Positions 8,581-57,497 of a stretch of 64,000 nt of DNA are shown piece by piece. The notes beneath the pieces are model-generated. The model saw only the letters and a program-made list of their open reading frames with translations. It searched no databases and was not told the origin of the DNA. Origin of the DNA: an uncultured Acidobacteriota bacterium. Its GTDB lineage: Bacteria > Acidobacteriota > UBA6911. Made by a program: the position numbers and the translations under genes. Each line of letters opens with the position of its first letter. Positions within the stretch are counted from its first letter, which is position 1. The stretch covers positions 280,336 to 344,335 of the forward strand of contig CAWHCF010000020.1 of assembly GCA_963827655.1 (NCBI GenBank). Reading direction: 5' to 3'.

Positions 8581-11159
8581 TCACACGCCGGACTTTTCTG
8601 GAAGTGCCTCTGGTCTGGACCGCAGGCCGGTGGCTCTCGCCGGCGGCTCAGACCACCGAAGGCAAATTCACTCTGGTTGATTTCGCCCCGCATGCGACCG
8701 ACGGAGTATTGCCGCGCGACATTCAGACCCGCGGCTGGTTCGAGGGCAGGGTCGAGGGCTTGCCGAACCTGCGGGGAGGGGAAGAGCGGCTCGCCGGCGT
8801 CCCGTTTCGACTTGTGGACTCCGCCGCGCGCCAGCGTATTCTGGTGCTGGGAGGGAAAAGCCGCAGAGCGTCGATTCCTCTGGGCAAAGCCTGCCACTAC
8901 GTCTGCGTGGCCCATTTCTGCGATCGGCACCCGGACGACACCGAAGGCCCCTTCGGTTCCGAAAACCCCCGGTCGGAGTTCGAACCGGTAGCGCAGCGGC
9001 TGGCTTCGTACACGCTCGTCTTCGAGGACGGCACGCGGCACGAACAGGCGATCCGGCGGCGCTACGAAATCAATCCGCCGGGAATGGATCCCTCCCACGT
9101 GCCGGCCGCGGCCCTCCCCGCTTATGAACCCGATTTCATTGGACTGGACGCAGCGCTCGGATCGGCTCTCGAGTGGGCTTACGCGCAAACCTCGGTCTCG
9201 CGCGAGCGGCCTCGCGGTCCCGTGATCTGGGTCTACGCTCTCGGCAATCCGCATGCGGACAAGATTGTACGATCCCTGGACCTGGAAGCAGCGGGCCAGG
9301 ATCTGTTAGGGATCTGCGCGATGACCCTCTTTCATCGTCCTGAACATCCGCTGCAGCGCGCCCCCTTGCGCAGGTTTGGGATCCAGTTGACAGGCGCGTC
9401 CGAGGACTGGCGCAAGCAGTGGCAGATCTCGGTTGACCTGGGAGTGGTCGCGCGAGTGTATCCGGCCCCCGAATTCAACACGCGCGAGTGGCTCGAAAAT
9501 CCCTACCAGGGTCTCGGTGAGCCGGCGCCGGACTTTTCCAAGACAAACCGGCTGATTGCCGAAGTCACGGCCTCTCCGGCGTCCACTCTTACTTTGGAAG
9601 ACAAGCTTGCCGGGAAGCGTTTCTCCTACGATCTGGCGGATGCTCTTCAACCGGAGGTCCGCGTCCTGGAGCCTGCGGCTGCCTGGGTGCACTGCAGAAT
9701 TGTCGATAAGGAAACCGGGAAACCATGCGCCGCGCGCATCAGCTTCCGTGGTCCGTCGGGCCGCTACATTGCTCCTTACGGTCATCCGGAAGACATCAAT
9801 ACGGGATGGATGCAGAACACCGGACCGGACGTGAAGATTGGCGGCGCCTCGTATGCGTATGTCGACGGGAACTGTCAGGTCGAGCTTCCGCCGGGCGAGG
9901 TCTACGTCGAGTTGTCGAAGGGCTTTGAGTTCGCTCCCTTGCGCAGACAATTAACCATCGCACCCGGGCAGCGGGAGATCGAGCTTTCAATTTCACGGGC
10001 GCTGCACAGCGGCCGCGATGGATGGGTAACCGCCGACACCCATGTGCACATCGGATCCCCTGAACTTCTGGTGCTGGAGGGGGCCGCCGAGGGACTCAAC
10101 CTGGTGAATCTGCTGGCCGCGCAATGGGGACGGCACTTCACCAATTTCGCCGATCCCCCCGGCCGTTTTTCGGGGAGCACTGCCGAGACGACGGTATGGG
10201 TCGGGTCGGAGAATCGCAATCACTTTCTCGGACATATCGGCTTGCTCGGCCTTAAGACGCGCGTTCTTCCCTTTTCCGACGCGGGGCCGCCCGTCGCCTA
10301 CTTCGGTTCGCCGTTGACGGCGAGCCTGGCCGATTGGGCCGACGCCTGCCGAAGTCAGGGTGGCGTGACGGTCGGAGTACACTTCCCGATTCCGAATGGC
10401 GAGACCGCGGCCGATGTCGTCCTGGGCAAGCTCGATGCCGCCGAAATCCGCTATGATCGCGGTTTCGCTTCGCTCGGTGTGACCGAGTACTATCGCTACC
10501 TGAACTGCGGGTTCCGACTTGCGGCCGTGGGGGGCACCGACAAGATGTTCCCGACCCGCGCGGTAGGCGCCGTGCGAACCTACGCGCGGCTGGACCGGGG
10601 CGAGCCCTTCAGTTTCGAAGCCTGGGCCAGAGCCCTGCGCGCGGGACGAACCTTCGCTACGGCCGGACCCCTGCTCTTCCTCAAAGTCGACGGAGTGGAA
10701 CCCGGCGGGGTGATCGAAGTCAAAGGCCGCGGCCAACTCGAAGTCCACGCGATGGCTGAGTCCGTTTATCCGCTGGGCGAGATCGAGATTGTTCAGAATG
10801 GGCGTGTCGTTGCATCGGGCTCAAACCCGCTGCGCGCGAAAGTCCCGGTCAAAGGCGCAGGCTGGATAGCCGCGCGTTGTTCCTCGCAGAAGCGACTCTC
10901 TTATGGAATGCGCAACATCGGAGCTCACACGTCGCCGGTCTACCTCACCGAGGATGGGAAAGGTTGTTTCTCGATTCCCGCCGCGGAATACATGCTGAGA
11001 CTCATCGAAGGGGCCGTTCTGTGGGTCGACACACTCGCGGTACGTTCGAGCCGTGAAGATCTGGCTCGCATCAAGAAGCTGTTTGCCGAAGCTCGAACTC
11101 TCTTGGGATCCCGGCTCGGACCCCATACACACCCGCACAATCCAGGAATCAAACCATGA
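8577..11159 (+). CDS. CehA/McbA-family PHP metallohydrolase with Tat signal
   Basis: GTG overlaps the upstream TGA; TRRTFL; GWVTADTHVH, GHIGLLG, YRYLNCGFRLAAVGGTD, AHTSPVY. Confidence 0.8.
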   Translation: MITRRTFLEVPLVWTAGRWLSPAAQTTEGKFTLVDFAPHATDGVLPRDIQTRGWFEGRVEGLPNLRGGEERLAGVPFRLVDSAARQRILVLGGKSRRASIPLGKACHYVCVAHFCDRHPDDTEGPFGSENPRSEFEPVAQRLASYTLVFEDGTRHEQAIRRRYEINPPGMDPSHVPAAALPAYEPDFIGLDAALGSALEWAYAQTSVSRERPRGPVIWVYALGNPHADKIVRSLDLEAAGQDLLGICAMTLFHRPEHPLQRAPLRRFGIQLTGASEDWRKQWQISVDLGVVARVYPAPEFNTREWLENPYQGLGEPAPDFSKTNRLIAEVTASPASTLTLEDKLAGKRFSYDLADALQPEVRVLEPAAAWVHCRIVDKETGKPCAARISFRGPSGRYIAPYGHPEDINTGWMQNTGPDVKIGGASYAYVDGNCQVELPPGEVYVELSKGFEFAPLRRQLTIAPGQREIELSISRALHSGRDGWVTADTHVHIGSPELLVLEGAAEGLNLVNLLAAQWGRHFTNFADPPGRFSGSTAETTVWVGSENRNHFLGHIGLLGLKTRVLPFSDAGPPVAYFGSPLTASLADWADACRSQGGVTVGVHFPIPNGETAADVVLGKLDAAEIRYDRGFASLGVTEYYRYLNCGFRLAAVGGTDKMFPTRAVGAVRTYARLDRGEPFSFEAWARALRAGRTFATAGPLLFLKVDGVEPGGVIEVKGRGQLEVHAMAESVYPLGEIEIVQNGRVVASGSNPLRAKVPVKGAGWIAARCSSQKRLSYGMRNIGAHTSPVYLTEDGKGCFSIPAAEYMLRLIEGAVLWVDTLAVRSSREDLARIKKLFAEARTLLGSRLGPHTHPHNPGIKP

Positions 11160-12181
11160 ACATTCGCGAAGTAGCGCGCAAAGCTGGAGTGGGCATCGGG
11201 ACCGTCTCTCGCGTGCTGAACGGTCGTACCTCGGTCAGCCCGGAAGTCCAGCAACGCGTGCTCGAGGTAGTCAAGGCACTCAAGTACACGCCAAATATTC
11301 ATGCCCGCCGCATGTGGAGGGGACGAACCAATACCATCTGCTTCGTTCTGGCCAACCGCCAGATACTGCTATCCCTGCACGGACATATCTTTCATGGCGT
11401 CGAGGAATTCTGCGGGGTGAACCAGTATAGTGTCCTGTTCACAACGTTCCGGTATTCGCCTCACATTCCTCCGGAGGAGCTGGAGCTGCCGCCGATTCTC
11501 AGGAATAAGGGAGTTGTCGACGGCGTGATTCTGGGAGGAGTGAACTATCCGAACCTGCTCAAGCGCATGGAGTCGGAGGCCATTCCCTACTCGCTGTTCG
11601 GCAACAATCTGATCGATGACAGCCCCCCAAAGAGCAAGGCGGTGCTGTTTGACGATCGTGATGGAGCCGAGCAAGCGGTCGAATACCTGATTCGGCTGGG
11701 CCACCGGGATATCTGGTTTGTAGGCCATACGGCGTGGCCATGGAATCGGCGGCGTCACGAAGCTTACGCCAAGATCATGAAGCGGCACGGCTTCAAACCT
11801 CGAGCCATCATTGAAGGCCCGGCCCAGCCCGGGCACGAACTCGGGCTTCAGGCAGGGCGGCGGATTCTCGAAGGCGATAAACCGTGCTCGGCAGTTTTCG
11901 CGGGCAGCGACTACATCGCGTCGGGATTCATCGAAGCCGCCACGCGGATCGGACGCCGGGTACCGAACAACTTGAGCGTCGTTGGCTTCGATGCGCTCGA
12001 TGAGTTCACATACTACCGGCCCCGCATCACGAGCGTCGGGACTGAAAAGGAAAAGATCGGCGAGTACTGCGCTCTTCTCTTGATCAAGCAGATTGAAGGC
12101 GAGGACCTCGGCCATCAGTCGAGCGTCCGTATCCCCATGCACATCGTTGAAGGCGAATCCTGCGCGCCCGTGCCGCAGTGA
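11156..12181 (+). CDS. LacI-family transcriptional regulator
   Basis: N-terminal HTH MNIREVARKAGVGIGTVSRVLN; VPNNLSVVGFD sugar-binding domain. Confidence 0.95.
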   Translation: MNIREVARKAGVGIGTVSRVLNGRTSVSPEVQQRVLEVVKALKYTPNIHARRMWRGRTNTICFVLANRQILLSLHGHIFHGVEEFCGVNQYSVLFTTFRYSPHIPPEELELPPILRNKGVVDGVILGGVNYPNLLKRMESEAIPYSLFGNNLIDDSPPKSKAVLFDDRDGAEQAVEYLIRLGHRDIWFVGHTAWPWNRRRHEAYAKIMKRHGFKPRAIIEGPAQPGHELGLQAGRRILEGDKPCSAVFAGSDYIASGFIEAATRIGRRVPNNLSVVGFDALDEFTYYRPRITSVGTEKEKIGEYCALLLIKQIEGEDLGHQSSVRIPMHIVEGESCAPVPQ

Positions 12182-12190
12182 CAGCTTCTT

Positions 12191-12220
12191 AACCACAAAG
12201 ACACGAAGAAACACCAAGAC
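12191..12220 (+). repeat. Short intergenic repeat, consensus about ACCACNAAGACACGAAGAAACACCAAG (one of about 9 copies)
   Basis: Related copies at 20278-20312(-), 20330-20359(+), 26743-26775(+), 28499-28521(-), 33163-33185(-), 41540-41568(-), 54588-54621(-) and 61010-61024(-). Confidence 0.75.
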
Positions 12221-12331
12221 TCAAGGTTCGTTGGGACTTCGCCCCGAACGAAGGCCCTTTGAACGACGACATGTTGGTTTGAACGTTCACTAAGCGCCTA
12301 AGCTGAATGCGCTCCATTCAAAGGACAAGGC

Positions 12332-14032
12332 ATGAACGGCTGGAAGCGTTGGCTGCCCGGACTGCAGATCCTCAGCCGGTACGAAGCACGCTGGCTGTCG
12401 CACGATCTGATCGCCGGCCTGGTGCTGACCACGATGCTGGTGCCGGTCGGAATCGCGTACGCAGTGGCTTCGGGCGTCCCGGGAATCAACGGTCTGTATG
12501 CCACTATCGTCCCGCTGCTCGCTTACGCGCTGTTTGGTCCCAGCCGCATTCTGGTGCTGGGGCCGGACTCCTCTCTCGCCCCGGTGATTCTCGCGGTCGT
12601 GCTGCCGCTCTCGGGTGGCGATCCGATGCGGGCCGTGGCCCTGGCGAGCACGATGGCGATAGTGTCGGGGCTGGTGTGCATCCTGGTAGGAGTGATGCGC
12701 CTGGGGTTCGTCACCGAGCTGCTGTCCAAGCCGATCCGCTACGGTTACATGAACGGCATCGCGCTCACGGTGCTGATCAGCCAGCTGCCCAAGCTGTTCG
12801 GCTTTTCGGTCGACGGCGTCGGGCCGCTGCGCGACCTCGCGCAGATCGCTGAATCGGTGCTGGGCGGCCAGGCTAACTGGACCGCGTTCGCGGTCGGCGC
12901 CGGCACGCTGACGGCGATCCTGCTGCTCAAGCGCTTCGAGCGAATCCCGGGCATCCTGATCGCAGTGGTGGGCGCTACTGTCGCGGTCGGTGCGTTCGGC
13001 CTCGACGAGGGCGCCGGGGTGAAGGTGCTCGGTCCGCTGCCGCAAGGTCTGTCGTCGTTCGCACTGCCGTGGATCAATCTCGCGGACCTCGGAGACGTGG
13101 TGATCGGCGCCTGCGCCGTCGCCATGGTGGCGTTCGCCGACACCAGCGTCCTGTCGCGCACGTATGCGGCCAAGACCCGTTCCCAGGTCGATCCGAACCA
13201 GGAGATGGTCGGTCTGGGAGCCGCCAACCTGGCCGCTGGACTGTTCCAGGGGTTTCCAATCAGCAGCAGTTCCTCGCGCACCCCGGTCGCCGAAGCCTCG
13301 GGCGCGAAGACCCAGCTTACTGGCGTAGTCGGCGCCGTGGGCGTCGCCTTGTTGCTGCTACTGGCACCTAATCTGCTGGAGAACCTGCCCACCAGTGCGC
13401 TCGCAGCGGTCGTGATCGCTTCGGCCATCGGCTTGTTCGAATTCGACGACCTGCGCCGCATCTTCCGCATCCAGCGCTGGGAGTTCTGGCTGTCCGTCGT
13501 CTGTTTCCTCGGCGTTGCCGTGGTGGGAGTGATTCCCGGCATAGGCCTGGCGATCGTCATCGCGGTCATCGAATTTCTGTGGGACGGCTGGCGGCCTCAC
13601 TACGCCGTGCTGGGCCGAGTCAACGGCATCCGCGGCTACCACGACATCAAACGCTATCCTGATGCGCGGCTCATACCCGGCCTGGTGCTGTTCCGTTGGG
13701 ACGCACCGCTGTTCTTCGCCAATGCCGAGCTGTTTCACCAGCGCGTGCTGGAAGCCGTGGCGAGTTCGCCGACGCCGGTGCGGCGGATCATCGTGGCCGC
13801 CGAGCCGGTCACCAGCATCGACGTCACTTCGGCGGACATGCTCGCCGAGCTCGAGCAGACCCTGCGCGCATCGCGCATCGAGCTGCGGTTCGCCGAAATG
13901 AAGGATCCGGTCAAGGACAAGCTGAAGCGCTTCGAACTGCTCGAGCGTTTCGGTGCCGCGAACTTCCATCCCACCATGGGCGGCGCCGTCGACGCCTACC
14001 TCGAAGAGCACTCGGTGGATTGGAAACCCTGA
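12332..14032 (+). CDS. SulP/SLC26 anion transporter with STAS domain
   Basis: DLIAGLV..VPVGIAYA, GLYATIVPLLAYALFGPSR, DPNQEMVGLG, SSSSRT, APLFFANA and IDVTSA (STAS). Confidence 0.95.
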   Translation: MNGWKRWLPGLQILSRYEARWLSHDLIAGLVLTTMLVPVGIAYAVASGVPGINGLYATIVPLLAYALFGPSRILVLGPDSSLAPVILAVVLPLSGGDPMRAVALASTMAIVSGLVCILVGVMRLGFVTELLSKPIRYGYMNGIALTVLISQLPKLFGFSVDGVGPLRDLAQIAESVLGGQANWTAFAVGAGTLTAILLLKRFERIPGILIAVVGATVAVGAFGLDEGAGVKVLGPLPQGLSSFALPWINLADLGDVVIGACAVAMVAFADTSVLSRTYAAKTRSQVDPNQEMVGLGAANLAAGLFQGFPISSSSSRTPVAEASGAKTQLTGVVGAVGVALLLLLAPNLLENLPTSALAAVVIASAIGLFEFDDLRRIFRIQRWEFWLSVVCFLGVAVVGVIPGIGLAIVIAVIEFLWDGWRPHYAVLGRVNGIRGYHDIKRYPDARLIPGLVLFRWDAPLFFANAELFHQRVLEAVASSPTPVRRIIVAAEPVTSIDVTSADMLAELEQTLRASRIELRFAEMKDPVKDKLKRFELLERFGAANFHPTMGGAVDAYLEEHSVDWKP

Positions 14033-14448
14033 AAACAAAAAAGAACCCGGCCTTGTTGTCAGCAGAGGGCCGGATTCCGAACCTCAGTGGCCAGATGATC
14101 GGCCGCGGTCGTGATGCAACATAAGAGCTAGTCGAAATCGAAGGCGAGTCTTCAAGGCGCATTCCACTGCGTATCCCAAGTAAGTAGTACGCAGCAGAAG
14201 AAGCGACCGGCGCCGACAAGCATCAAAGCGTCGTCTACCCGAAGGTCAGCTAGGGCTTGGAGGTCCGGTTCTATGCACGGTTGTCGTTTGTCATATGGGA
14301 GATATCGGCACGTGGAGACGGTCGCCAGAGAAGCCGAGTGCTACAGCGCGGCCTCAGGGCAACCTCGGGCAATCGCGGGTGGCGTAGCCGAGATAAACCC
14401 TCTGCGAAGCGCGAAGACGTTCCCGTGAGGGACTAAGGACTGAATGAC

Positions 14449-20247: not shown

Positions 20248-20384
20248 GTGTAGCCCTTCCGTCACTGTATTAGGATTCTTGGTGTTTCTTCGTGTCTTTG
20301 AGCCTTGGTGGTATTGGTTAGACAGCTCTAACCACGAAGGTCACAAGACACGAAGAAACTCGATTCGTCCCGGGGCGTCAATGC

Positions 20385-21395
20385 TCAACTTTCAAAAAAG
20401 GCCCCGTTACGTTCCTGGCCGAGCGCGGCAAATAAGACATTTTGCGGACCGTCGTCAGATTCGAACATGGCCCCTCTGCGAACGGCCCGCCATTTGATGC
20501 TCGCGCTGGTTTTTTTGTTAAGGTAAACGAATCGGTTCGCGAAGTTGCGGGCTTGCTCCTGGGCCCCACCGCCGAACCACCGCACTTCCATGGACACCGT
20601 GGACGGAAACACCGGCCTCAAGGGCATGCCCGCACCATCAAGAGCTGCCTCCGTCCCACAGCGCGGTGAGAACGTTACCAAAGTCCGGCATCTGGGCATC
20701 ACTCAGACAGAAGATAGCCTCTCCACTGGCGAAGTCCATCGCCACACTCGCCGGCGGGATAGGCATGGTCCAGAAGAGCCCGGTTTCGGACGTTCCTGGG
20801 TTGTGATCATGGAGCTGAAAATCAAATTCGCCGAGGTGACCCACCTCGAAAACGTCCATTCAATAGAGTGCGAAGTTCCGTGGTGTTCGGATCCGTCGGT
20901 GCCGATGTAAAAACCGTTCATGAAACGGGCGTCAACGCCAAAGGGAAGACCGGTAGTTGTCCTTATGACCGCGCCGGTAAAGGGATCCAGCTCGGTCCGC
21001 GTACCCGTTCCCTGGATGTCGAGGACGGCAACGTCTCCTCTGAAATTAAAGATCAGTGATGGCTCCGCCTGCGGTCCCCCGAAAGTAAAGTGGAAGAGTC
21101 TATCAGGAAACCGAGGACCTAGCGCGGCACGAGCATTGAAGCCTCCCGGAATCGGTACCGGGGCGGGGCTGCCAAGTGGATTCACGACAGAGATCGAGGG
21201 ATTCTCCATCGCCTCGGTCTTATTCCGCAATCCAGCACCGGCGACCAGACTCATACCTGCGGCCGCCTGAATGAAATGCCTCCGCGAGACAGCCGGCCCA
21301 GGAGAGCCGGATTGGACGGTGTGACTTGGTCTTCCGCCGGAAGGCGTCGAACCGCGTTTGGACAAGTCGTCCCACAAATGGCGTTGACAGAACAT
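20385..21395 (-). CDS. Tat-signal hypothetical protein, candidate selenoprotein (two compensating frameshifts, in-frame TGA at 20860-20862)
   Basis: SRRHFIQAAAG Tat motif. Adding one T at ACT TC (~20874) and removing one G near 20652 joins ORFs 20703-21395, 20638-20859 and 20385-20702 into 336 aa: ...HHGTFALY-(TGA)-MDVFEVGH...QERNGAFFES. Confidence 0.6.
20832..20848 (-). promoter_or_regulatory. Putative bacterial SECIS element
   Basis: mRNA reads UGA-AUGGACGUUUU-CGAGGUG GGU CACCUCG: a perfect 7-bp stem starting 11 nt after the UGA, with GU in the apical loop. Confidence 0.55.
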
Positions 21396-21665
21396 CGCAA
21401 GATCTCCTTTCTCGCTGAATCGGTGATCAGTTTACCCAGAACCGGAATCGGTCAGTGAAGGTCCGGGTTCACACGGCGTTCCTTGTCGCTAACTGCTTGC
21501 AGCGTAAGGAAAACTCAAGTCCATGTCAAGCGTTTGCCAATCCGTTGCGGGTCTTCGTGGTTGTCCTCGAATCGCCTTGACATGGAGCGATGAAATCTAG
21601 AACATGTTCCACTTCCGGAAGGTTCCAGTCCCAATGTTCCTCTGGCGCGGAAACGCGCGCCCGCT

Positions 21666-45117: not shown

Positions 45118-45259
45118 GGCACAAACCGTCTTTAGCAGGCCTTCAAGCGAACCGCGGGCAGTATATCACGCGATCAGAGGCCAGATTCGCGTCTTCCCGT
45201 TTTTGAGGTTGATCTGTCTTTGCGGATTTAGGCTAGAATCGAGGCGGAGTGTTTCCGGG

Positions 45260-47542
45260 ATGAAATCCAAAGAGCGCTCCTCGTTTTAATCCTGATGGTC
45301 GCCGGCGCCGTGGCCTGGACGCAAACGGAATCCCGGCACTACATGTCCGCAGGCACGCGGCGGATGGCGGAACGGCTGGAAGAGCTGGCTCGAACCGCAA
45401 TACCTCCCAATCCCCCGATGACCTCCGAAAGGATAAAAAACTCTCGTCGTCAGATCGTCGAGAGTCGCGATCCGCTAAACGCCTTTGAGTTGCAGATGGA
45501 GCTGGGATACGAACTTCTCCTGGACGGCAGGAGCGAAGAAGCCGCCCATGAATTGCGTGAGGCGGAGCAGCTTCTCGTGAGGCAAAAACTTGCCGTCAAA
45601 CCGGAACTGACTCGTGTCCTGGGCCAGCTTCTGGCTGTTTCGTATCTTCGCCTGGGGGAGCAAGAGAACTGCGTTGCGCAGCACAACAGTGAGTCCTGTT
45701 ACCTCCCGATTCGCGCCTCCGGGATTCACAAGAAAGAGCGTGGTTCACGAGCGGCGATCGAAGTCTTGATGAAAGGGAATCCTGGAGACCTGAGCTCGCG
45801 CTGGCTGCTCAATCTTGCGCATATGACTCTTGGAGAATATCCCCAGCGGGTTCCTCGACAGTGGTTGCTGCCTCCGGCGATTTTCGACTCCGACTATCGT
45901 ATCGAGCGATTCCAGGATGTTGCTCCGCAGGTCGGACTGGATCTTCTGGGTTTGGCCGGCGGCGAGCATCATGGAGGATTTCGACGCCGATGGCGACCTG
46001 GATATCATGGCTTCGTCGTGTGGCTTCAGGGATCAGCTACGCTATTTCCGGAACAATGGTGACGGAACCTTCACCGAGCGCACGGCGGAAGCCGGCCTGA
46101 CAGGCGAGGTCGGGGGACTCAACATCACACATGGCGATTACAATAACGACGGCTATCCGGATGTGCTGGTTCTGCGCGGAGGGTGGCTTTTTGAGCAGGG
46201 AGAGCATCCGAATTCACTGCTGCGCAACAATCGTGATGGCACTTTTAATGATGTGACAGAAGAGGCCGGCTTGCTCACTTTTCATCCGACCCAAGCTGCA
46301 GCCTGGGGCGACTTCGACAACGATGGTTGGGTCGATATTTTCGTAGGCAATGAGTCCGACGGCAAAAAAACCCGCCCTTGCCAGCTTTTTCATAACAACG
46401 GCGACGGCACGTTTACCGAATGCGCCGACGGACTGGGAATCGCCGCGGTTGGCTACGTCAAGGGTGTGGTCTGGGGCGACTACAACAACGACGGCTGGCT
46501 GGATCTCTACGTCTCGCGGATGGGCGGCACCAATATTCTCTACAGGAATGAAGGGCCGAAGCGGAACCCGGGATCGACGGAGAATCTGGCATGGAAGGGT
46601 GGAAGTTCACAGATGTGACGAATCAGGCCGGCGTCGGGAAGCCGATTCAGAGTTTTGCCACCTGGTTCTGGGACTACAACAACGACGGCTGGCTGGACAT
46701 CTTCGTTGCCGGATTCACTCCACAATCGACCAGGTCTCTGGATGATGTCGTTGCCATCTATTCAGGGCGGCCCAGCGCCGGCCGAACGCTCCCGGCTCTT
46801 CCGCAACAATCGCGACGGGACTTTCAGCGATGTCACGCGCGCGGCAAGAATCGATCGAGTGTTGCAAATCATGGGCGCAAATTTCGGCGATCTCGATAAC
46901 GATGGGTTTCAGGATTGCTATCTGGGAACAGGCGAGCCGGATCTGCGGGTCCTTATTCCAAACCGCATGTTCCGTAACGCGGGCGGCCATTACTTTCAAG
47001 ATGTCACTACGTCAGGTGGATTCGGCCACTTGCAAAAGGGTCACGGCGTCTCGTTTGGAGATATCGATAACGACGGGGATCAAGATATTTATGAGGTCAT
47101 CGGAGGGTGGTACTCCGGAGATGTCTTCCAGAATGTTCTGTTTGAAAATCCTGGTAACCGCAATCACTGGCTCACGCTGAGACTCGAGGGAGTCCGCTCG
47201 AACCGCGCGGCAATTGGAGCGCGGATCAAGGTGACTGTGGATACGGCGGAAGGTAAGCGCGAGATTCACTCAACGGTGTCCACCGGGGGAAGTTTCGGTT
47301 CATCGAGCCTGCAGCAGGAAATCGGATTGGGGCGAGCCGATTCGCTTCGGATGATAGAAATCACCTGGCCTGCGACCGGAAGGACCGACTTGATCAGGAA
47401 TGTCGCGATGGATCAGGTGTTCAGGATTCAAGAAGGACAACCGGTTCCGATTCCTGTCAAGGTGAAACGGTTCAAGCTCGCCGGGGCCGAGCCACAAACC
47501 GGATCAGAGCGTCCTCCTCATCACCACCCTCCCTACCAATAG
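45260..47542 (+). CDS. CRTAC1 family FG-GAP/ASPIC-UnbV protein (about four frameshifts)
   Basis: YLRLGEQENC, WLLNLAHMTLG, DYNNDG repeats, MGANFGDLDNDG, GFGHLQKGHGV and SNRAAIGARIKV..GGSFG..EIGLG. Confidence 0.85.
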
Positions 47543-50500
47543 TATTTCAGCCCGAATTGAATCTCTCGCGCAGGTCCGGCGGCGAAGATCTTGCCAAACG
47601 TTGCCGGCGCCAGCACGGTGGCGGATGGGGCGCCGAAATTGGGATGGTTGAAGGCGTTAAAGAGCTCCGTGCGAAATTGCAGAGACTGCCGCTCGCCTAG
47701 TTTAAAGCTCTTGTGAATGGCGAGATCGGAATTGATGATTCCATCGGTGTTTAGAATGTTCGCGCCGGCATTGCCGAAGGCGCCGATATCGTTGGGCACG
47801 AAACAATTGGTATCGAACCACAGGTCCACCGTGCGTTCACCCGACGGCAGGTTTCCGTTGCAGACCCGGTTGGGACGATCCAGGCCGGATCCGGTGCCGG
47901 CGCGATTGGCTCCCGTGACCGCCCGGACCCAGAATCCCGACTGAAGCGAAGTGACTCCCGAGAACTGCCAGCCTCCCAGAAACCAGTCCGCCGGACCTGT
48001 GACATTCAAGAATCGCTTTCCATTGCCGATTGGAAGGCCGTAGATGAAGCTGAACGATAAGCGATGACGGACGTCGAAAACAGCATTTGCCTTCTCCGCG
48101 TTGGTGTTGAGCTCATCCTGGACGTGGACGATGCCTCCAGGGCCCCCTTCCGCGGCGGCATTCTCGATGTTGTGCGACCAGGTGTAAGCCGCCAGAAACG
48201 ATAGATCACCCGAAAAGCGTTTTTCCGCCTTCAGCTGGAGCGAATGGTAACTCGAGGCCGCGCGCGAGTCGGCGATCAGAAACTGGCCCCATAGCGGAAA
48301 GGGCCGCCGAGCCTGAATGTCCCCGGTCCCGGGCCGGGCCGCATTGAGGTTTCTCAACGCATCCAGGTGCGTCCCTTTGTTTCCTGCATACGCGACGTCG
48401 AGCGCCAGATTCTGGGTCAACTGTCTCTGCAGGCTGAAACTCCACTGTTGCACATAACCATCCACGAAGTCGTTTGAAAGCCCCAAGCCGCCCTGAGGAG
48501 CTGTCGAGATCGCCGCCGCCGGGAATGGATTGTTCAAGCTCAGGGTTGGAATAACCGGATCCGCGAAGTATCGCTCCTGAACGAAATGCGGAGGAACGAA
48601 GCTGAGCAGGAACTGGGAATTGAAGATCGCCAGGTTGTAGAAGATCCCGTACCCGCCGCGTAGGGTTGTACTCGCGCTTCCGAAGGGACGCCACGCAAAC
48701 CCAGGCGAGGTCCCCAATTGTTCGTGTCGGGAAAGTAGAGGGCTCTTTTGGCCCGGCCCGTGAAACCAGCCTGTTCCGCCTCGGGCGTGTTCGCGGACAC
48801 GAGCTTTCCTTCGGGAAAGACGCTCTTGAACTCCTTCGCCCCCGTGGTGAACGTGGCCAGAGTATCAAAAAAGTCATCAACCCAGGGCTCGCGGTATTCG
48901 TAACGGATGCCCAGGTTCAAGGTAAAGTTCGTCGTCACTTTCCAGTCGTCGTTGAAATAGAAACTATAGAATCTCGACCGCGCGTCTTGCCGCGTCTCGC
49001 CCAGAGCTCTTTCTGCCTGATTCGGGAATCCCAGCATCAGCTCCGGCAATCCATTCTGCCCTCTGGCATAGACGTTCCGGAAAATGTAGTAGCCACGGTG
49101 ACGATTCTCCGAGCGATCGTCGTTGATTCCGATATAACGGAAGTCCCCCCCCACTTTGAAAGTATGGGTTCCGCGAATGATCGTGAGATCATCGGTAACC
49201 TGGTGGACATTCTCGTGTCGTTGAACCGGCGCATAAAGCCGGTCGCCCACACTCGGAAGCCCCTGGACTGAGAACAACGGAACTCCATCCAACACCGCGG
49301 GAGGATTCGCCCCGGGGATTCCGAACGAGGCCGTCGTGCCGGCTTCTCCGAGCGTGGGAGAGGTGGCGATGTTCTTCTCCCGATTGTATCCGTATCGGAT
49401 CACGTTCAATAACACGGGACTGAAGACGTGAGTCTCGTTGAGCGCAATATTCTGCGCACGATAATCCACCGTCTCGCCGAAGCCGGGGACGTTAGTGCCG
49501 CCGCCGATTGGATTCAGTCTGTCGACGGTGTTTATGACGTATCGGACAAACAATCGATCGTTGGCTGAAAAATCGTGATCGATGCGAGCCATCGCGGAGT
49601 CCTCGTCTTGCCGGAGAGGATCGCTCGCGACATAGTTTCGCGCTAGTCCCGGCAGAATCGGGTCCGGGTAAAAAGACAGGACTTTCCGGGCCGTCGGATG
49701 GATGCGGCTATCCGGAATGATATTCCCGGGAAAGGGTTGCCCGGTCATGGGGTCGAAGATCTGGGTCGGCGTGGGCAAGCTCAACCATTCCGAGAAATTG
49801 CCGCTCTTCATCAAGGGCGTCGGCATCGTGTCGGTTACGGACTGTCCCCGCCGCATGCGCAGGCCTTCGTAATTGACGGCGAAGAAGGTCCGATCCCTAT
49901 AGATCGGCCCCCTCAACGAACCGCCAAATTGATTGCGCTTGAATTCAGGCGGCGCTCCGGGATCGAAGAAATTCCGCGCATCCAGCTCATCATTTCGAAT
50001 GAACTCGAAGAGGACTCCGTGAAAGTCATTAGTGCCCGACTGAGTGGTCAGGTTGATCTGGGCGTTGCCCAGGACGCCGTACTCCGCCGAGTATGTTGAT
50101 TGAATCATCTTGAACTCCCTGACGGCATCGACGGAGGGGAGGACCGAAACGTTCCCGGCTTGGAAACCCCTGGTTTCGATTCCATCCACCAGGAAGGCGT
50201 TATTGGCGTTCCGGCCACCTGCGTGGAACGGCGTGCTCATGGGATTGGCCCAGGTGCCACCCGCGTGCCCACCTGACCCCAGGGTCGTGGAAGTTCCGGG
50301 AGCCAATGTCGCCAGGAGATTAAACCGCCGTTCGTTTAAAGGAAGCTCGACAATGCTATGGTGCTCGACGACAGAACCCACGGTCGCATCCTGCGTGTTC
50401 AAGAGCGGAGCAATCGCTACCACTTCCACTTTTTCTGATACCTCTCCGACCTCCAGTTTGATGTCCACCCGGCCCTGGCTTTCGACACGTAAGACGACTC

Positions 50501-50780
50501 CCCGGACTTCGGCCCTCTTGAAACCCGACAGTTCTGCTATGACGACGTACTCGCCCAGCGGCAGGTAAGGAATTTCATAATACCCGCTCTCATTTGTTAC
50601 GGTGTTTTGTCTCAGGTTTGTCTCTACATTCGTGACCGTGATCGTCACACCCGGTATGATCGCCCCTGTCGGGTCGGTAACGGTTCCCAGAATCGTTCCC
50701 GTAATCCGCTGTCCAAAAACGTTTGGAACCAACGAAAGGTAGAAAATTGCCGGCAATATGGAGAACCTTGGAAGTCTCAT
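47533..50780 (-). CDS. TonB-dependent receptor, Oar-like (frameshift ~48710)
   Basis: GTILGTVTDPTGAIIPG, ELPLNER, YSAEYG, SGTNDFHG, NQFGG, DDWKV..LNLGIRYE and C-terminal REIQFGLKYYW. Confidence 0.92.
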
Positions 50781-51152
50781 ACGTTCCTCGCGGTGGCAGT
50801 ATTGAAAGATCTTTGACAGTTGGTAGCACGTACCAACTCTATGGGGGGAGGGAGCAAGCACGCCAGGGATGTGACCACAATCTATCAGCGGTGACTGGCT
50901 GTCAAGCCTAAAGTTTGCGCGAGTCTTTGGCCGCGCAACCGGCCAGGCTGACGCCGATAGTTATCAACGCTTGTGAGCGATGGGGCCTCACGGGCGAGCC
51001 TTCGGCCGTGGTTAACGGGGACGCGAGAAGAACTTTCGAGAAGCATGCCGCTCTGTCTGAATCGCAGGAAGCTACCGAAGTGGAACTACACAGTCGCTCC
51101 AGATCTGTGACATCATTACCGCGCGAGCTCGGAAACGCGAAGACACCCTCCC

Positions 51153-55656: not shown

Positions 55657-56515
55657 CTACGTCGCTCGACACAGACCGCTCTGGAATGCAGTCACGAAAA
55701 AAGACCGGACTTCCTCGGGCGTGATCTCCGGTTTTGCGGCCGCTGTCAAGCGCCGGATTATTTCGCCAATTGTGCGACTTCCGGTGATCTCCTGCAGGAC
55801 CGTTAAAACGCCGTAATCAAGCCGAAAGAGACGAACCGACACGCTGCCGGGGTTCCCCCAGTAGCCCCAAATACCGGCGTCTTTGCAAAGACGACTGGAA
55901 TCGAATGCGGACTTTGCAATCTGGTTGGCGATCTCGAGCGGATCGTGCTCGAAAACGCCCACGCGGAAGACGCCGTTCATACGAGGTACCAATTCGTCCA
56001 GATCACCCAAGGCCCGCTCCGGCGGCGTCTCGTCGGTCGATCCAGCGCCGGACGCTGGCGGTTGCGTTCCGGCCGATTCGGCTCGCTTCCCACATGAGCC
56101 ATTCGTGATTCAGGATATCCTCGAGACCCGGTGCGCTATCAGGGGGAAGAGAGGCCAGATATGTCTTCAGAAATGCGACGAAGGCCCGGACCTTTTCTCT
56201 CTTCCCGGGATTTGCAGCCCGCATGCGCTGATGAGTCTCGCGATACGCGCTAAAGACCGGTAGCTCCAGGTCATAGTGGCGGAGCAGAGTATGGGTTTGC
56301 GCCATTTCCGCAATGACGTCGTGATTCTGTATCTTTGTGATAAATCCGGCAAGATATCGGATCCGCCTCAGATCGAGGCTGAGAAAACCACGCTGTTCCT
56401 GTTCATCCAGAGCGTATTCTTTCAGGGTCTCTTCCGTGTTCGAAGCCAACGCATCCAGGAATCGCGGATCCAGTATACACCGGGCTATGATCGAGTTGAC
56501 GGTCGCGGTGCTCAT
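55657..56515 (-). CDS. MNIO partner protein with probable C-terminal RRE (ApyI-like by context) (frameshift ~56030)
   Basis: ATG overlaps the MNIO stop. The C-terminal piece LFRLDYGVLTVLQEITGSRTIGEII..VRSFF..GL has a PqqD/RRE-like pattern. Confidence 0.7.
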
Positions 56516-57381
56516 CCCGGCATGCCTCTTTGAACCACACGGCGCACTCGATCCACCTCATCCACAAGAACACTCTCAACCATGGCCGAGGGCCAGTTAT
56601 ATTCCAGGGTCACTGCCCGGACCTTTCCTCGCTCCAGCACCAGCGGCAACATCTGAAGGATTGGATCAGGAACCGGGCTGGCATGATTGTCCCAGTGAAT
56701 ATCGGCCTGGCAGTCCACGCCCGAGACATGCACTTCGACGACTCGCTCGAGCGGATACTTCAAGAGTTCCCGGCGCGGATCGAAATCGAAATTTCTTGAC
56801 GTTATGTAGAGGTGCGTGAGGTCGAGGAGCAGATTAGCGGAAGTCTGTCCACAGATCGAGCTTATGAAATCGGCTTGCGACATCGTCGTTCCCGGCGGGA
56901 GGAAATAAAGAGGCGGATTTTCGAGAAGCAGGGGGATGCCGAAATGACGCTGGCACGCGTCTACCGATTCCACCACCATGGTGATGGTTTCCTCGTTCAT
57001 CGGCGGGCTTACTGTATACCCGATATTATAGGGCTCTCCAGGGGCGTACTCGTCCCAGTGGCTGGAAGCGCCCGGCTTCTCGGCTGTAATAAAAGAAAGA
57101 TGTTCCCCCAGCCAAGGCGTCTCGGTCCGGTCAATCCACTCGAATATCTGCTGAATAGTTGTAAGGGGCGGGCGCGCTGAGCCGGCGATCGACATACTGG
57201 CGCAATGCAGGATGAACGGCTTGTATTGTTTCAAGTCGATGATTGAAGGGTCATGACGCAAGAGTTCAAACGGGACTTCCAGGTAATCAGCTGAGGCAGG
57301 GTTCCTTTTGATGAGTGACTCGGCCCCCCGATTGTAGGCCAGGCCAATAAGCGGCGAACTTTCTGCAAGAGGCGCCCACAC
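56512..57381 (-). CDS. DUF692 multinuclear non-heme iron oxidative enzyme (MNIO)
   Basis: DYLEVPFE, ILHCASMS, WLGEHLSF, LLLENP, LLLDLTHL, EVHVSG, DNH and VTLEY. Confidence 0.93.
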   Translation of the reverse strand: MWAPLAESSPLIGLAYNRGAESLIKRNPASADYLEVPFELLRHDPSIIDLKQYKPFILHCASMSIAGSARPPLTTIQQIFEWIDRTETPWLGEHLSFITAEKPGASSHWDEYAPGEPYNIGYTVSPPMNEETITMVVESVDACQRHFGIPLLLENPPLYFLPPGTTMSQADFISSICGQTSANLLLDLTHLYITSRNFDFDPRRELLKYPLERVVEVHVSGVDCQADIHWDNHASPVPDPILQMLPLVLERGKVRAVTLEYNWPSAMVESVLVDEVDRVRRVVQRGMPG

Positions 57382-57497
57382 GGCTTACGTCCCCAGGGTT
57401 TCTGACAGCGGCCGGTCGGGCCGTCGAGAATTTCGCGTAATGGTGGAAAAGTCCGACTGACGATCCGTCCGGTTCGAACGAATCACGGAAGACAACA

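Follow-up and report, generated by a model that had tools for sequence, protein, structure and literature searches.

A UGA codon inside an acidobacterial gene points to a large bacterial family of exported selenoproteins not described before

Does a UGA in the middle of a bacterial gene end one protein and precede another, or does it encode selenocysteine (Sec) within a single longer product? This question is raised by a minus-strand gene (21395..20385) in a stretch of 64,000 nucleotides (hereafter the window; contig CAWHCF010000020.1, positions 280,336 to 344,335) from an uncultured Acidobacteriota bacterium of the lineage UBA6911. Reading the UGA as Sec and applying two 1-nt corrections turns the gene into one frame of 336 codons. 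Based on the data presented here, we consider it very probable that the encoded protein belongs to an extensive and previously undescribed bacterial family of exported selenoproteins, with Sec predicted at this UGA. Judged by sequence conservation, the family as a whole almost certainly carries Sec at its in-frame TGA.

As assembled, the gene is broken into three open reading frame (ORF) pieces (Table 1). Frame 1 reads MFCQRHLWDDL...VSRRHFIQAAAGMSLVAGAGL...GSEHHGT from the ATG, includes the motif SRRHFIQAAAG in the N-terminal part of the protein, and then turns into nonsense. Frame 0 continues with (RN)FALY-TGA-MDVFEVGHLGEF (in a longer reading of the same stretch after the TGA, MDVFEVGHLGEFDFQLHDHNPG) up to LTALWDGGSS and a stop. 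Past a second indel, the reading returns to frame 1 with ...LDGAGMPLRPVF...ERNGAFFES, the stop codon being at 20385-20387. The first-pass annotation had proposed the frame HHGTFALY-TGA-MDVFEVGH and a protein of 336 aa with Sec near residue 179; the minus-strand reading bears this out, with the TGA at 20860-20862, and the proposed size and Sec position agree with the closest relatives (P0001-P0003), whose N-terminal halves are 178-179 aa long and begin with MFCQR, as does the window gene.

The evidence that carries this assignment comes from the homologues. With the window's 230-aa ORF as query against 5.8 billion proteins, 33 proteins were matched, each 129-179 aa long. All 31 of the proteins entering the alignment (leaving out P0010 and P0028, the latter having a deviating C-terminus) terminate at one column directly before the UGA, in the context ...G-T-F-A/G-F/L-F/Y/V. 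The closest relatives, 85-91% identical over the N-terminal half, read EHHGTFALY or FGFY at this point. A scan of DNA, taking one genome per species, yielded 58 loci from Acidobacteriota, Actinomycetota, Chloroflexota (Ktedonobacterales), Planctomycetota (Gemmataceae and other Planctomycetia) and Armatimonadota; the Actinomycetota carriers include three cultured Kribbella, one of them with a complete chromosome. TGA occupies the Sec column at 58/58 genome loci (57/57 without L042, whose genome is flagged as unpublished) and at 2/2 metagenome loci, TAA or TAG at 0/60. The comparison suggested beforehand, i.e., whether homologues are in frame and interrupted by TGA and not by TAA or TAG, hence gave TGA in 60 of 60 loci with the downstream frame kept. 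In 54 of the 58 genome loci, 141-275 in-frame codons follow the TGA, mostly 141-157, the lengths up to 275 being due to C-terminal extensions; the remaining four comprise three loci running off the contig and one degraded remnant, L066. Conserved motifs downstream of the TGA are [LIMV]-D-[VL]-[FY], H-D-F-N-P-G, L-F-W-T, and E-R-N-G. The remnant L066 (1458-1649), in which about 60 codons around the TGA survive beside a Ser/Thr-kinase-like gene, is a genuine example of a pseudogene in this family.

These loci also allow weighing the simplest alternative, namely two separate genes, a secreted protein of ~178 aa with an ordinary TGA stop followed by a gene of ~150 aa, the hairpin described below being a stability or attenuation element. 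Gene callers annotate the family in this way throughout the databases; as the first-pass annotation had anticipated, the two halves are deposited as separate "hypothetical protein" entries, the designation that every source uses for family members. Furthermore, the TGA is directly followed by ATG in the window and in L010-L012, and the window hairpin is statistically unexceptional when taken alone. Against this stand the 60/60 loci with TGA, compared with true stops that are distributed over TAG (27), TGA (22), and TAA (5) among 54 family genes. The codon next to the internal TGA is ATG, GTG, or TTG in just 6/58 loci; in the other 52 it is CTN, ATC, ATT, GTC, or CCC and thus not a canonical start. 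The halves always share one frame without a spacer in five phyla, and the TGA is flanked on both sides by invariant residues (F at -4, D at +2). AlphaFold2 folds the read-through protein into one barrel, with strands contributed by both halves and a predicted local distance difference test score (pLDDT) of ~90 over the mature part. Homologues without the TGA are full-length proteins in one piece, and in Actinomycetota, linkage of the gene with selD, selA, and selB is seen. We therefore regard two separate genes as very improbable.

A Sec codon should be accompanied by a selenocysteine insertion sequence (SECIS), and the window contains a hairpin of this kind. Its 17-nt core, CGAGGUG-GGU-CACCUCG at 20832-20848, covers nt 15-31 counted from the U and begins 11 nt past the UGA, with G22, G23, and U24 in the loop and GGUC at +22 to +25, exactly as previously read. 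The minimal fdhF SECIS, as described in the available part of PMC8659212, is a stem-loop of 17 nt (nt 15-31) that lies 11 nt from the UGA, contains G23/U24 in its loop, and has a bulged U17; the facts on which the first-pass annotation relied match this description. According to the available part of PMC13188914, the consensus of the bacterial SECIS (bSECIS) comprises an apical loop of 3-9 nt, an upper stem of 4-16 bp, a G in the first two loop positions, a UGA-to-loop distance of 16-37 nt, and a minimum free energy of <= -7.5 kcal/mol; the window hairpin agrees with all four published constraints of this model.

On family level, an alignment-free test for perfect stems (>=6 bp, G-U allowed, loop centre at +20 to +28 from the U) detected a hairpin in 46/59 sequences, compared with a mean of 7.5 (SD 4.0, maximum 22) at 253 control offsets within the same genes. 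At this spacing from the UGA, hairpins are hence ~9.6 SD more frequent than at the control positions. A strict test based on the bSECIS consensus, allowing no bulges and stems from 4 bp upward, with the limits on loop length, loop G, spacing, and energy as given above, was passed by 36/59 sequences, compared with a mean of 5.0 and a maximum of 15 at 243 other offsets. Conservation of the hairpin, another check proposed at the outset, thereby concerns its distance, kept in those 46 sequences, with stems that differ in sequence (GGGGUC/GACCCC, CCGUGUC/GGCACGG, CGAGCCCG/CGGGCUCG, CAAGUCC/GGACUUG, and others) and loops that are mainly GGU, GUU, AGUU, or GGUC. The folding energy of the segment after the UGA ranks at a median of the 24th percentile relative to other windows of the same gene, by itself a weak test. 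A scan of positions 20700-20950 against Rfam at E<=10 returned two chance-level matches and no SECIS family.

A UGA can also be read through without Sec, either by a near-cognate tRNA inserting Trp, Cys, or Arg or by reassignment of TGA. Some database entries do have W at the position in question, and the identity of the inserted residue is something we infer. One W entry, P0199, which comes in addition to the eight among the best profile matches given below, is however near-identical to L021, which has TGA, and the W entries therefore reflect TGA read as Trp by the gene caller. TGA is moreover the true stop in 22/54 of the same genes, so the genetic code is standard. The hairpin fits the SelB-binding consensus in its position and its loop G-U, and carriers possess the Sec machinery, which adjoins the gene in Kribbella. 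Taken together, read-through without Sec appears highly unlikely, and insertion of Sec remains the preferred reading of the UGA.

In order to estimate the family size, a profile was built from alignment A2, which comprises 48 full-length members (with U entered as C), and was compared with 1.84 billion representatives of 50% identity clusters. At E<=0.001, 2,247 of these were matched, of which 1,480 reached E<=1e-10, halves being counted separately. By hand count, the best 150 of the 2,247 matches consist of ~44 N-terminal halves whose last residue corresponds to profile position 135, ~89 C-terminal halves beginning at position 137 or later, and 17 proteins spanning position 136, with W in eight, S in three, G in two, C in one, and L, F, and K in one each. 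P0036 is thus the single Cys form among these best 150 matches; its contig DNA was not found, leaving the codon unconfirmed, and the search for it delivered two more TGA members and two proteins matching in the twin-arginine translocation (Tat) signal only.

Known families offered no counterpart. Six full-length members compared with NCBIfam 20.0 (June 2026) and Pfam-A, as well as all 48 members compared with Pfam at E<=10, matched only Tat-signal models, and the three window ORF pieces hit no family in Pfam and NCBIfam besides a near-threshold Tat match. Table 1 of a review from May 2026 lists 119 prokaryotic selenoprotein families and subfamilies, nearly all defined by Pfam, TIGR, or NF models; the available part of this source holds no entry with the motif or description of the present family (PMC13188914). 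BSepDB, as presented in the accessible part of its publication, contains 111 families and was built from previously reported ones (PMC13326102), and deep-Sep, likewise according to the accessible part, may miss selenoproteins without Cys homologues (PMC12013277). A literature search in the main texts of articles found neither a paper on such a family nor an experiment demonstrating Sec in one of its members.

Sec incorporation depends on dedicated machinery, for which we examined the window's genome (8.18 Mb, 53 contigs, 90% complete). The genes that the first-pass annotation had suggested looking for, i.e., selA, selB, selD, and the gene of tRNA-Sec (selC), were all found (Table 1). At least one classical selenoprotein, the formate dehydrogenase alpha subunit FdhA, is encoded in this genome. 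Across carriers, selB exceeded the cut-off in 42/50 genomes, a set leaving out L060-L067.

The most compact arrangement was observed in Kribbella. Among 98 genomes of this genus, the family profile matched four, three of which are real members with one TGA each; the fourth match (23 bits) covers the signal region only. SelA is present in 12/98 Kribbella genomes and in 3/3 family carriers, a co-occurrence with a hypergeometric p of ~0.0015 for three carriers that are close kin. In all three, the family gene adjoins selD, tRNA-Sec, selA, and selB. On the chromosome of Kribbella sp. NBC_00359 (L088, 8819-14141) these form a compact Sec island in the order family gene, selD, tRNA-Sec, selA, selB. 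This complete chromosome gave no FdhA match at E<=1e-20, other selenoprotein families not having been searched there, and the other two carriers gave only weak non-TGA FdhA matches. The compact island, the missing FdhA, and the presence of selA in only 12/98 genomes suggest that the Sec machinery and the family gene were acquired together in Kribbella. Within the whole set, Sec-machinery genes lie <=3 kb away in 5/58 loci, namely the three Kribbella loci, L020 (selA and selB directly downstream), and L040 (selD nearby).

The window copy itself requires two corrections, as the first-pass annotation had recognized, and their exact nature could be taken from contigs of related strains, 90-99% identical to the window (runs X2, X3, and X4, labelled rhizosphere, rhizosphere, and soil metagenome), which are in frame at both sites. 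Contigs of a further run, X1, are 99% identical and cover neither site. At site 1, HHGT is thrown out of frame with FALY-UGA, while homologues read GTFALY or GTFGFY; because the closest relatives share this EHHGTFALY or FGFY reading, the window is one base short before FALY. The base had been thought to be a T missing from a TT run. The relatives instead show it to be the third base of a Thr codon (ACA or ACG), which leaves the protein reading unchanged. The second indel, formerly placed at ~20652, is positioned by the relatives at ~20643-20646. It ends frame 0 at WDGGSS and a stop, with the rest back in frame 1; after its correction the window matches L010 in length, ...LWGGGAVDGQGMPL. The distribution over three ORFs is consequently explained by one missing and one extra base.

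Whether these indels are errors of the assembly or are present in the organism has to be judged from other genes. Both rpoB and rpoC of this assembly are broken up over two frames (G000:C8:77700-86155); since genes as essential as these have to be functional, indel errors are present in the assembly. Two further genes of the window are split as well. A CarboxypepD_reg and OMP_b-brl_4 (TonB-dependent-type) outer-membrane protein (47536-50960, minus strand) lies in two overlapping ORFs that span profile positions 1-444 and 443-838, with one frameshift near 48.5-48.9 kb, and an FG-GAP/ASPIC (UnbV_ASPIC) gene (45232-47539, plus strand) lies in three ORF pieces. We considered both window indels to be probable errors of this assembly, likelier than real pseudogenisation. 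The alternative, a true selenoprotein family whose window copy is a real pseudogene carrying both 1-nt indels in the organism, is unlikely but has several points in its favor. The two indels fall inside 230 nt of a 1-kb gene, frame-1 read-through meets a stop at 20703, and neither indel lies within a homopolymer. SelA of this genome consists of four frame segments with three frameshifts in 1.4 kb (L002/L003, G000:C23:243631-244996, minus strand), which could mean that the Sec trait is decaying. Searches of 40 relatives of the window's genome did not recover the N-terminal ORF, the gene occurring in this one of 41 genomes only and thus being dispensable and patchy. Opposed to this are the frameshifted rpoB and rpoC, the two other split genes of the window, the intact FdhA with its TGA, selB, selD, and tRNA-Sec, and a sequence that is otherwise well conserved, as seen in the N-terminal half, with a perfect hairpin.

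A second TGA of the window, at 46616-46618 in the FG-GAP/ASPIC gene, was evaluated as a Sec codon and rejected: the real frame of this gene (FTDVTNQAGV) changes there, and the TGA is therefore another frameshift.

Table 1. Position and scores of the family gene, its parts, and Sec-related genes in the window, in the window's genome, and in Kribbella sp. NBC_00359 (L088)
Feature	Location	Strand	Remarks
Window: whole gene as assembled	20385..21395	-	three ORF pieces: 21395..20703 frame 1, 20859..20638 frame 0, 20702..20385 frame 1
Window: Shine-Dalgarno AAGGAG	21404..21409	-	8 nt upstream of ATG 21393-21395; sequence reading
Window: probable Tat signal, residues 36-56, VSRRHFIQAAAGMSLVAGAGL	21228..21290	-	TIGR01409 15.7 bits vs cut-off 16.7
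Window: indel site 1, one base short, Thr codon third position	20874..20875	-	one extra base behind 20874 in X2, X3, X4 (3/3 covering runs)
Window: in-frame UGA, predicted Sec codon (~residue 179)	20860..20862	-	same alignment column TGA in all homologue loci
Window: SECIS-like hairpin UCGAGGUG-GGU-CACCUCGG	20831..20849	-	8 bp, loop GGU, loop spacing 18 nt, -10.1 kcal/mol
Window: indel site 2, one base over	20643..20646	-	base left out at 20646 (X3) or 20643 (X4), 2/2 covering runs
Window: C-terminal part GAGMPLRPVF...ERNGAFFES	20385..20642	-	true stop TGA 20385-20387; ends in the family's invariant E-x-N-G motif
Window's genome: selA			398 bits; split by 3 frameshifts in assembly
Window's genome: selB			380 bits (cut-off 242)
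Window's genome: selD			384 bits
Window's genome: tRNA-Sec			74 bits; ARAGORN: tRNA-SeC, anticodon tca
Window's genome: FdhA, one in-frame TGA, intact	L095, G000:C26:166295-169291		1381 bits
L088: family gene	8819-9775	-	directly downstream of selD, same strand, <=22 nt gap
L088: selD	9797-10888	-	370 bits
L088: tRNA-Sec	10929-11025	+	
L088: selA	11075-12373	+	421 bits
L088: selB	12375-14141	+	300 bits

Two further features of the window are recorded here as observations in their own right. Just downstream of the gene, positions 20284-20359 form an imperfect palindrome with 29-nt arms (83% complementary) and an 18-nt spacer. Parts of it gave ~300 blastn-short matches genome-wide and reached a metagenome contig depth of 248-307, compared with ~5 alongside; it looks like a member of an intergenic repeat family of the repetitive extragenic palindrome or miniature inverted-repeat transposable element type. 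At 56515-57384 on the minus strand, the window contains a gene for an enzyme of the MbnB/TglH/ChrH family (DUF692), which modifies ribosomally synthesized and post-translationally modified peptides (143 bits).

Turning to the protein, its export via the Tat pathway is probable on the basis of its sequence. The window's own signal, with SRRHFIQAAAG, scored just below the TIGR01409 cut-off. The homologue L018 scores over this cut-off (22.5 bits), RR is present in at least 90% of the 48 members, and Pfam TAT_signal matches 10/48 at E<=10. A sequence search of the PDB with the family profile gave the Tat signal peptide of NapA as sole match (E 0.43). In L015 (2965-4065) and in the protein P0093, a C-terminal extension carries an LPxTG-like sorting signal, a hydrophobic stretch, and a basic tail, and L046 (2863-3882) has a similar tail; such tails fit an extracytoplasmic location.

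Within alignment A2 (L011 numbering), the invariant residues before Sec are P51, H72, E81, P82, I85, F88, G90, G99, R127, G131, G138, and F145; from Sec onward they are U149, D151, Q165, D168, W180, T181, W244, E299, N301, and G302. The earlier statement that no CxxU motif and no known selenoprotein fold is recognizable holds for the 48 members, which contain neither CxxU nor UxxC nor any conserved Cys and gave no family or fold match. AlphaFold2 on A2 (mean pLDDT 79, ~90 over most of the mature part, predicted template modelling score 0.78) returned an all-beta model with long antiparallel strands, in which Sec is located in strand 140-153. F145, F147, U149, and D151 alternate along this predicted strand and should face one side. 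Among seven aligned non-TGA homologues, D168 is replaced in 7/7 and D151 in 5/7; P0109 (G) and P0069 (K), read by eye, are also without D168. Since the scaffold residues H72, E81, R127, F145, W244, E299, N301, and G302 are mostly kept in these homologues, Sec, D151, and D168 would appear to behave as one functional unit. As far as searched in model libraries and papers, the family, its fold class among selenoproteins, the near-lack of Cys forms, and this U/D/D site are new.

Several observations weigh against the assignment and need to be considered together. The window copy as assembled is unable to make the full protein, and two indels in 1 kb exceed the frequency of about one per 4 kb in rpoB and rpoC. 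At the hairpin site, 13/59 sequences have no 6-bp perfect hairpin and 23/59 did not pass the strict bSECIS test; the folding energy of the window hairpin reaches only the 13th percentile of windows within this G+C-rich gene. The bulged U17 of the fdhF type is absent, position 17 being a paired A within a perfect stem, a caveat that had already been noted. RNAalifold predicted zero pairs from a plain MAFFT alignment of 58 segments of UGA plus 45 nt, which is attributable to hairpin arms in different columns, as loop and stem lengths vary. SelB stayed under the cut-off in 8/50 carrier genomes, all of them metagenome-assembled. Within the window's own class, selB is found in 58/61 genomes with or without the gene and is thus nearly universal, making co-occurrence uninformative there. 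The three Kribbella carriers, being close kin, do not represent independent cases, and no conserved neighbor gene was found, the largest neighbor cluster covering 6/58 loci at varying distances. Cys homologues, the usual supporting criterion, are nearly absent (P0036 with its unconfirmed codon). With respect to fold, Foldseek against the PDB gave template modelling (TM) scores <=0.26, and the best VIA-align Z of 7.7 is within the background of this tool (<8).

Considering both sides, we favor Sec insertion at the UGA, and the recoding mechanism would be the ordinary bacterial one. Inferred from the gene anatomy, translation of a single mRNA would start with the ATG at 21395. The hairpin located 11 nt behind the UGA, with its GGU loop and G23/U24, would recruit SelB with Sec-tRNA(Sec) to this codon; Sec would be inserted instead of termination, and translation would continue to the stop at 20385. 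Its signal suggests that the ~336-aa product leaves the cytoplasm folded via the twin-arginine route, and the mature ~230 aa are predicted to form an all-beta barrel. Conservation places Sec in a putative strand motif G-T-F-x-F-[FYVI]-U-[LIMV]-D, where it may act with two invariant aspartates, the one at U+2 and the D of H-D-F-N-P-G. As to the chemistry, our best guess is that the enzyme works outside the cytoplasm, in redox reactions or with a metal, and that, given the near-absence of Cys forms, its active site requires Sec itself. Extending this, we tentatively propose an obligate selenoenzyme family with a new active site, in which a lone Sec and two Asp in a beta-barrel, without partner Cys or thioredoxin fold, might perform extracytoplasmic chemistry beyond the reach of Cys; in some aerobic soil Actinomycetota (Kribbella) it may be the selenoprotein that accounts for retention of the complete Sec machinery, the two having been transferred together on a single gene island. 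This wider proposal is speculative and rather less likely to be right than wrong.

If the assignment is correct, it closes a gap in the catalog of selenoproteins: 2,247 clusters from at least five phyla, mostly soil bacteria, were not found among the 119 catalogued families as far as these are given in the available part of their source, nor in Pfam and NCBIfam. It also reveals a blind spot of methods, as current discovery pipelines require Cys-containing homologues, which are almost absent here, and have therefore probably missed the family. Its recognition would correct thousands of split "hypothetical protein" annotations and would mean that the biology of aerobic soil bacteria includes a selenoprotein that is exported and not of the thioredoxin type. 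Kribbella, as a cultured genus in which one carrier genome is complete and selD, selC, selA, and selB adjoin the gene, can be considered as a possible test system for selenium outside the cytoplasm.

In comparison with known structures, residues ~82-303 of the model share long antiparallel strands with the beta-barrels BF2706 (3rwx), OmpW (2f1t), the acetoacetate-decarboxylase-like 5upb, 4zbo, and 4jm3, and AttH (2ich), at VIA-align Z of 6.5-7.7 over 109-158 aligned residues. It differs from them in that Z stays below 8, the usual best value without a true match, with Foldseek TM <=0.26 and identities of 3-10%. Another likeness, to secreted bacterial proteins of ~300 aa, concerns DUF1838 (PF08894), whose clusters came first in an ESM Atlas language-model feature search with P0036 (score 0.94, 26/30 matches). 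This lead was not confirmed: PF08894 was matched by 0/48 members at E<=10, and hhalign of the family profile with a DUF1838 protein from genome G004 gave a probability of 0.2%. The present family resembles the catalogued prokaryotic selenoprotein families in its single predicted Sec, in a hairpin of the bSECIS type, and in being mis-annotated as truncated ORFs. It differs from them in that it lacks a match to the Pfam, TIGR, or NF models defining most of these families, a thioredoxin-like fold, and a CxxU or UxxC motif, and in that its Cys homologues are nearly absent. Relative to E. coli fdhF and FdnG, there is no sequence or fold kinship and no molybdopterin or Fe-S domain (0 Pfam/NCBIfam family matches), the size is ~300 aa compared with ~1,000 aa, the hairpin is without the bulged U17 of fdhF, and the window gene is separate from the genome's own FdhA. 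Common to these systems are the in-frame UGA followed by a hairpin in the coding region and, presumably for the window family, the dependence on selA, selB, selC, and selD. FdnG, a formate dehydrogenase of E. coli, is Tat-exported, and the window protein has a probable twin-arginine leader. The closest correspondence is to the fdhF SECIS as described in the available part of its source, the stem-loop of the window likewise being 17 nt in length, occupying nt 15-31, and having G23/U24 in its loop (PMC8659212).

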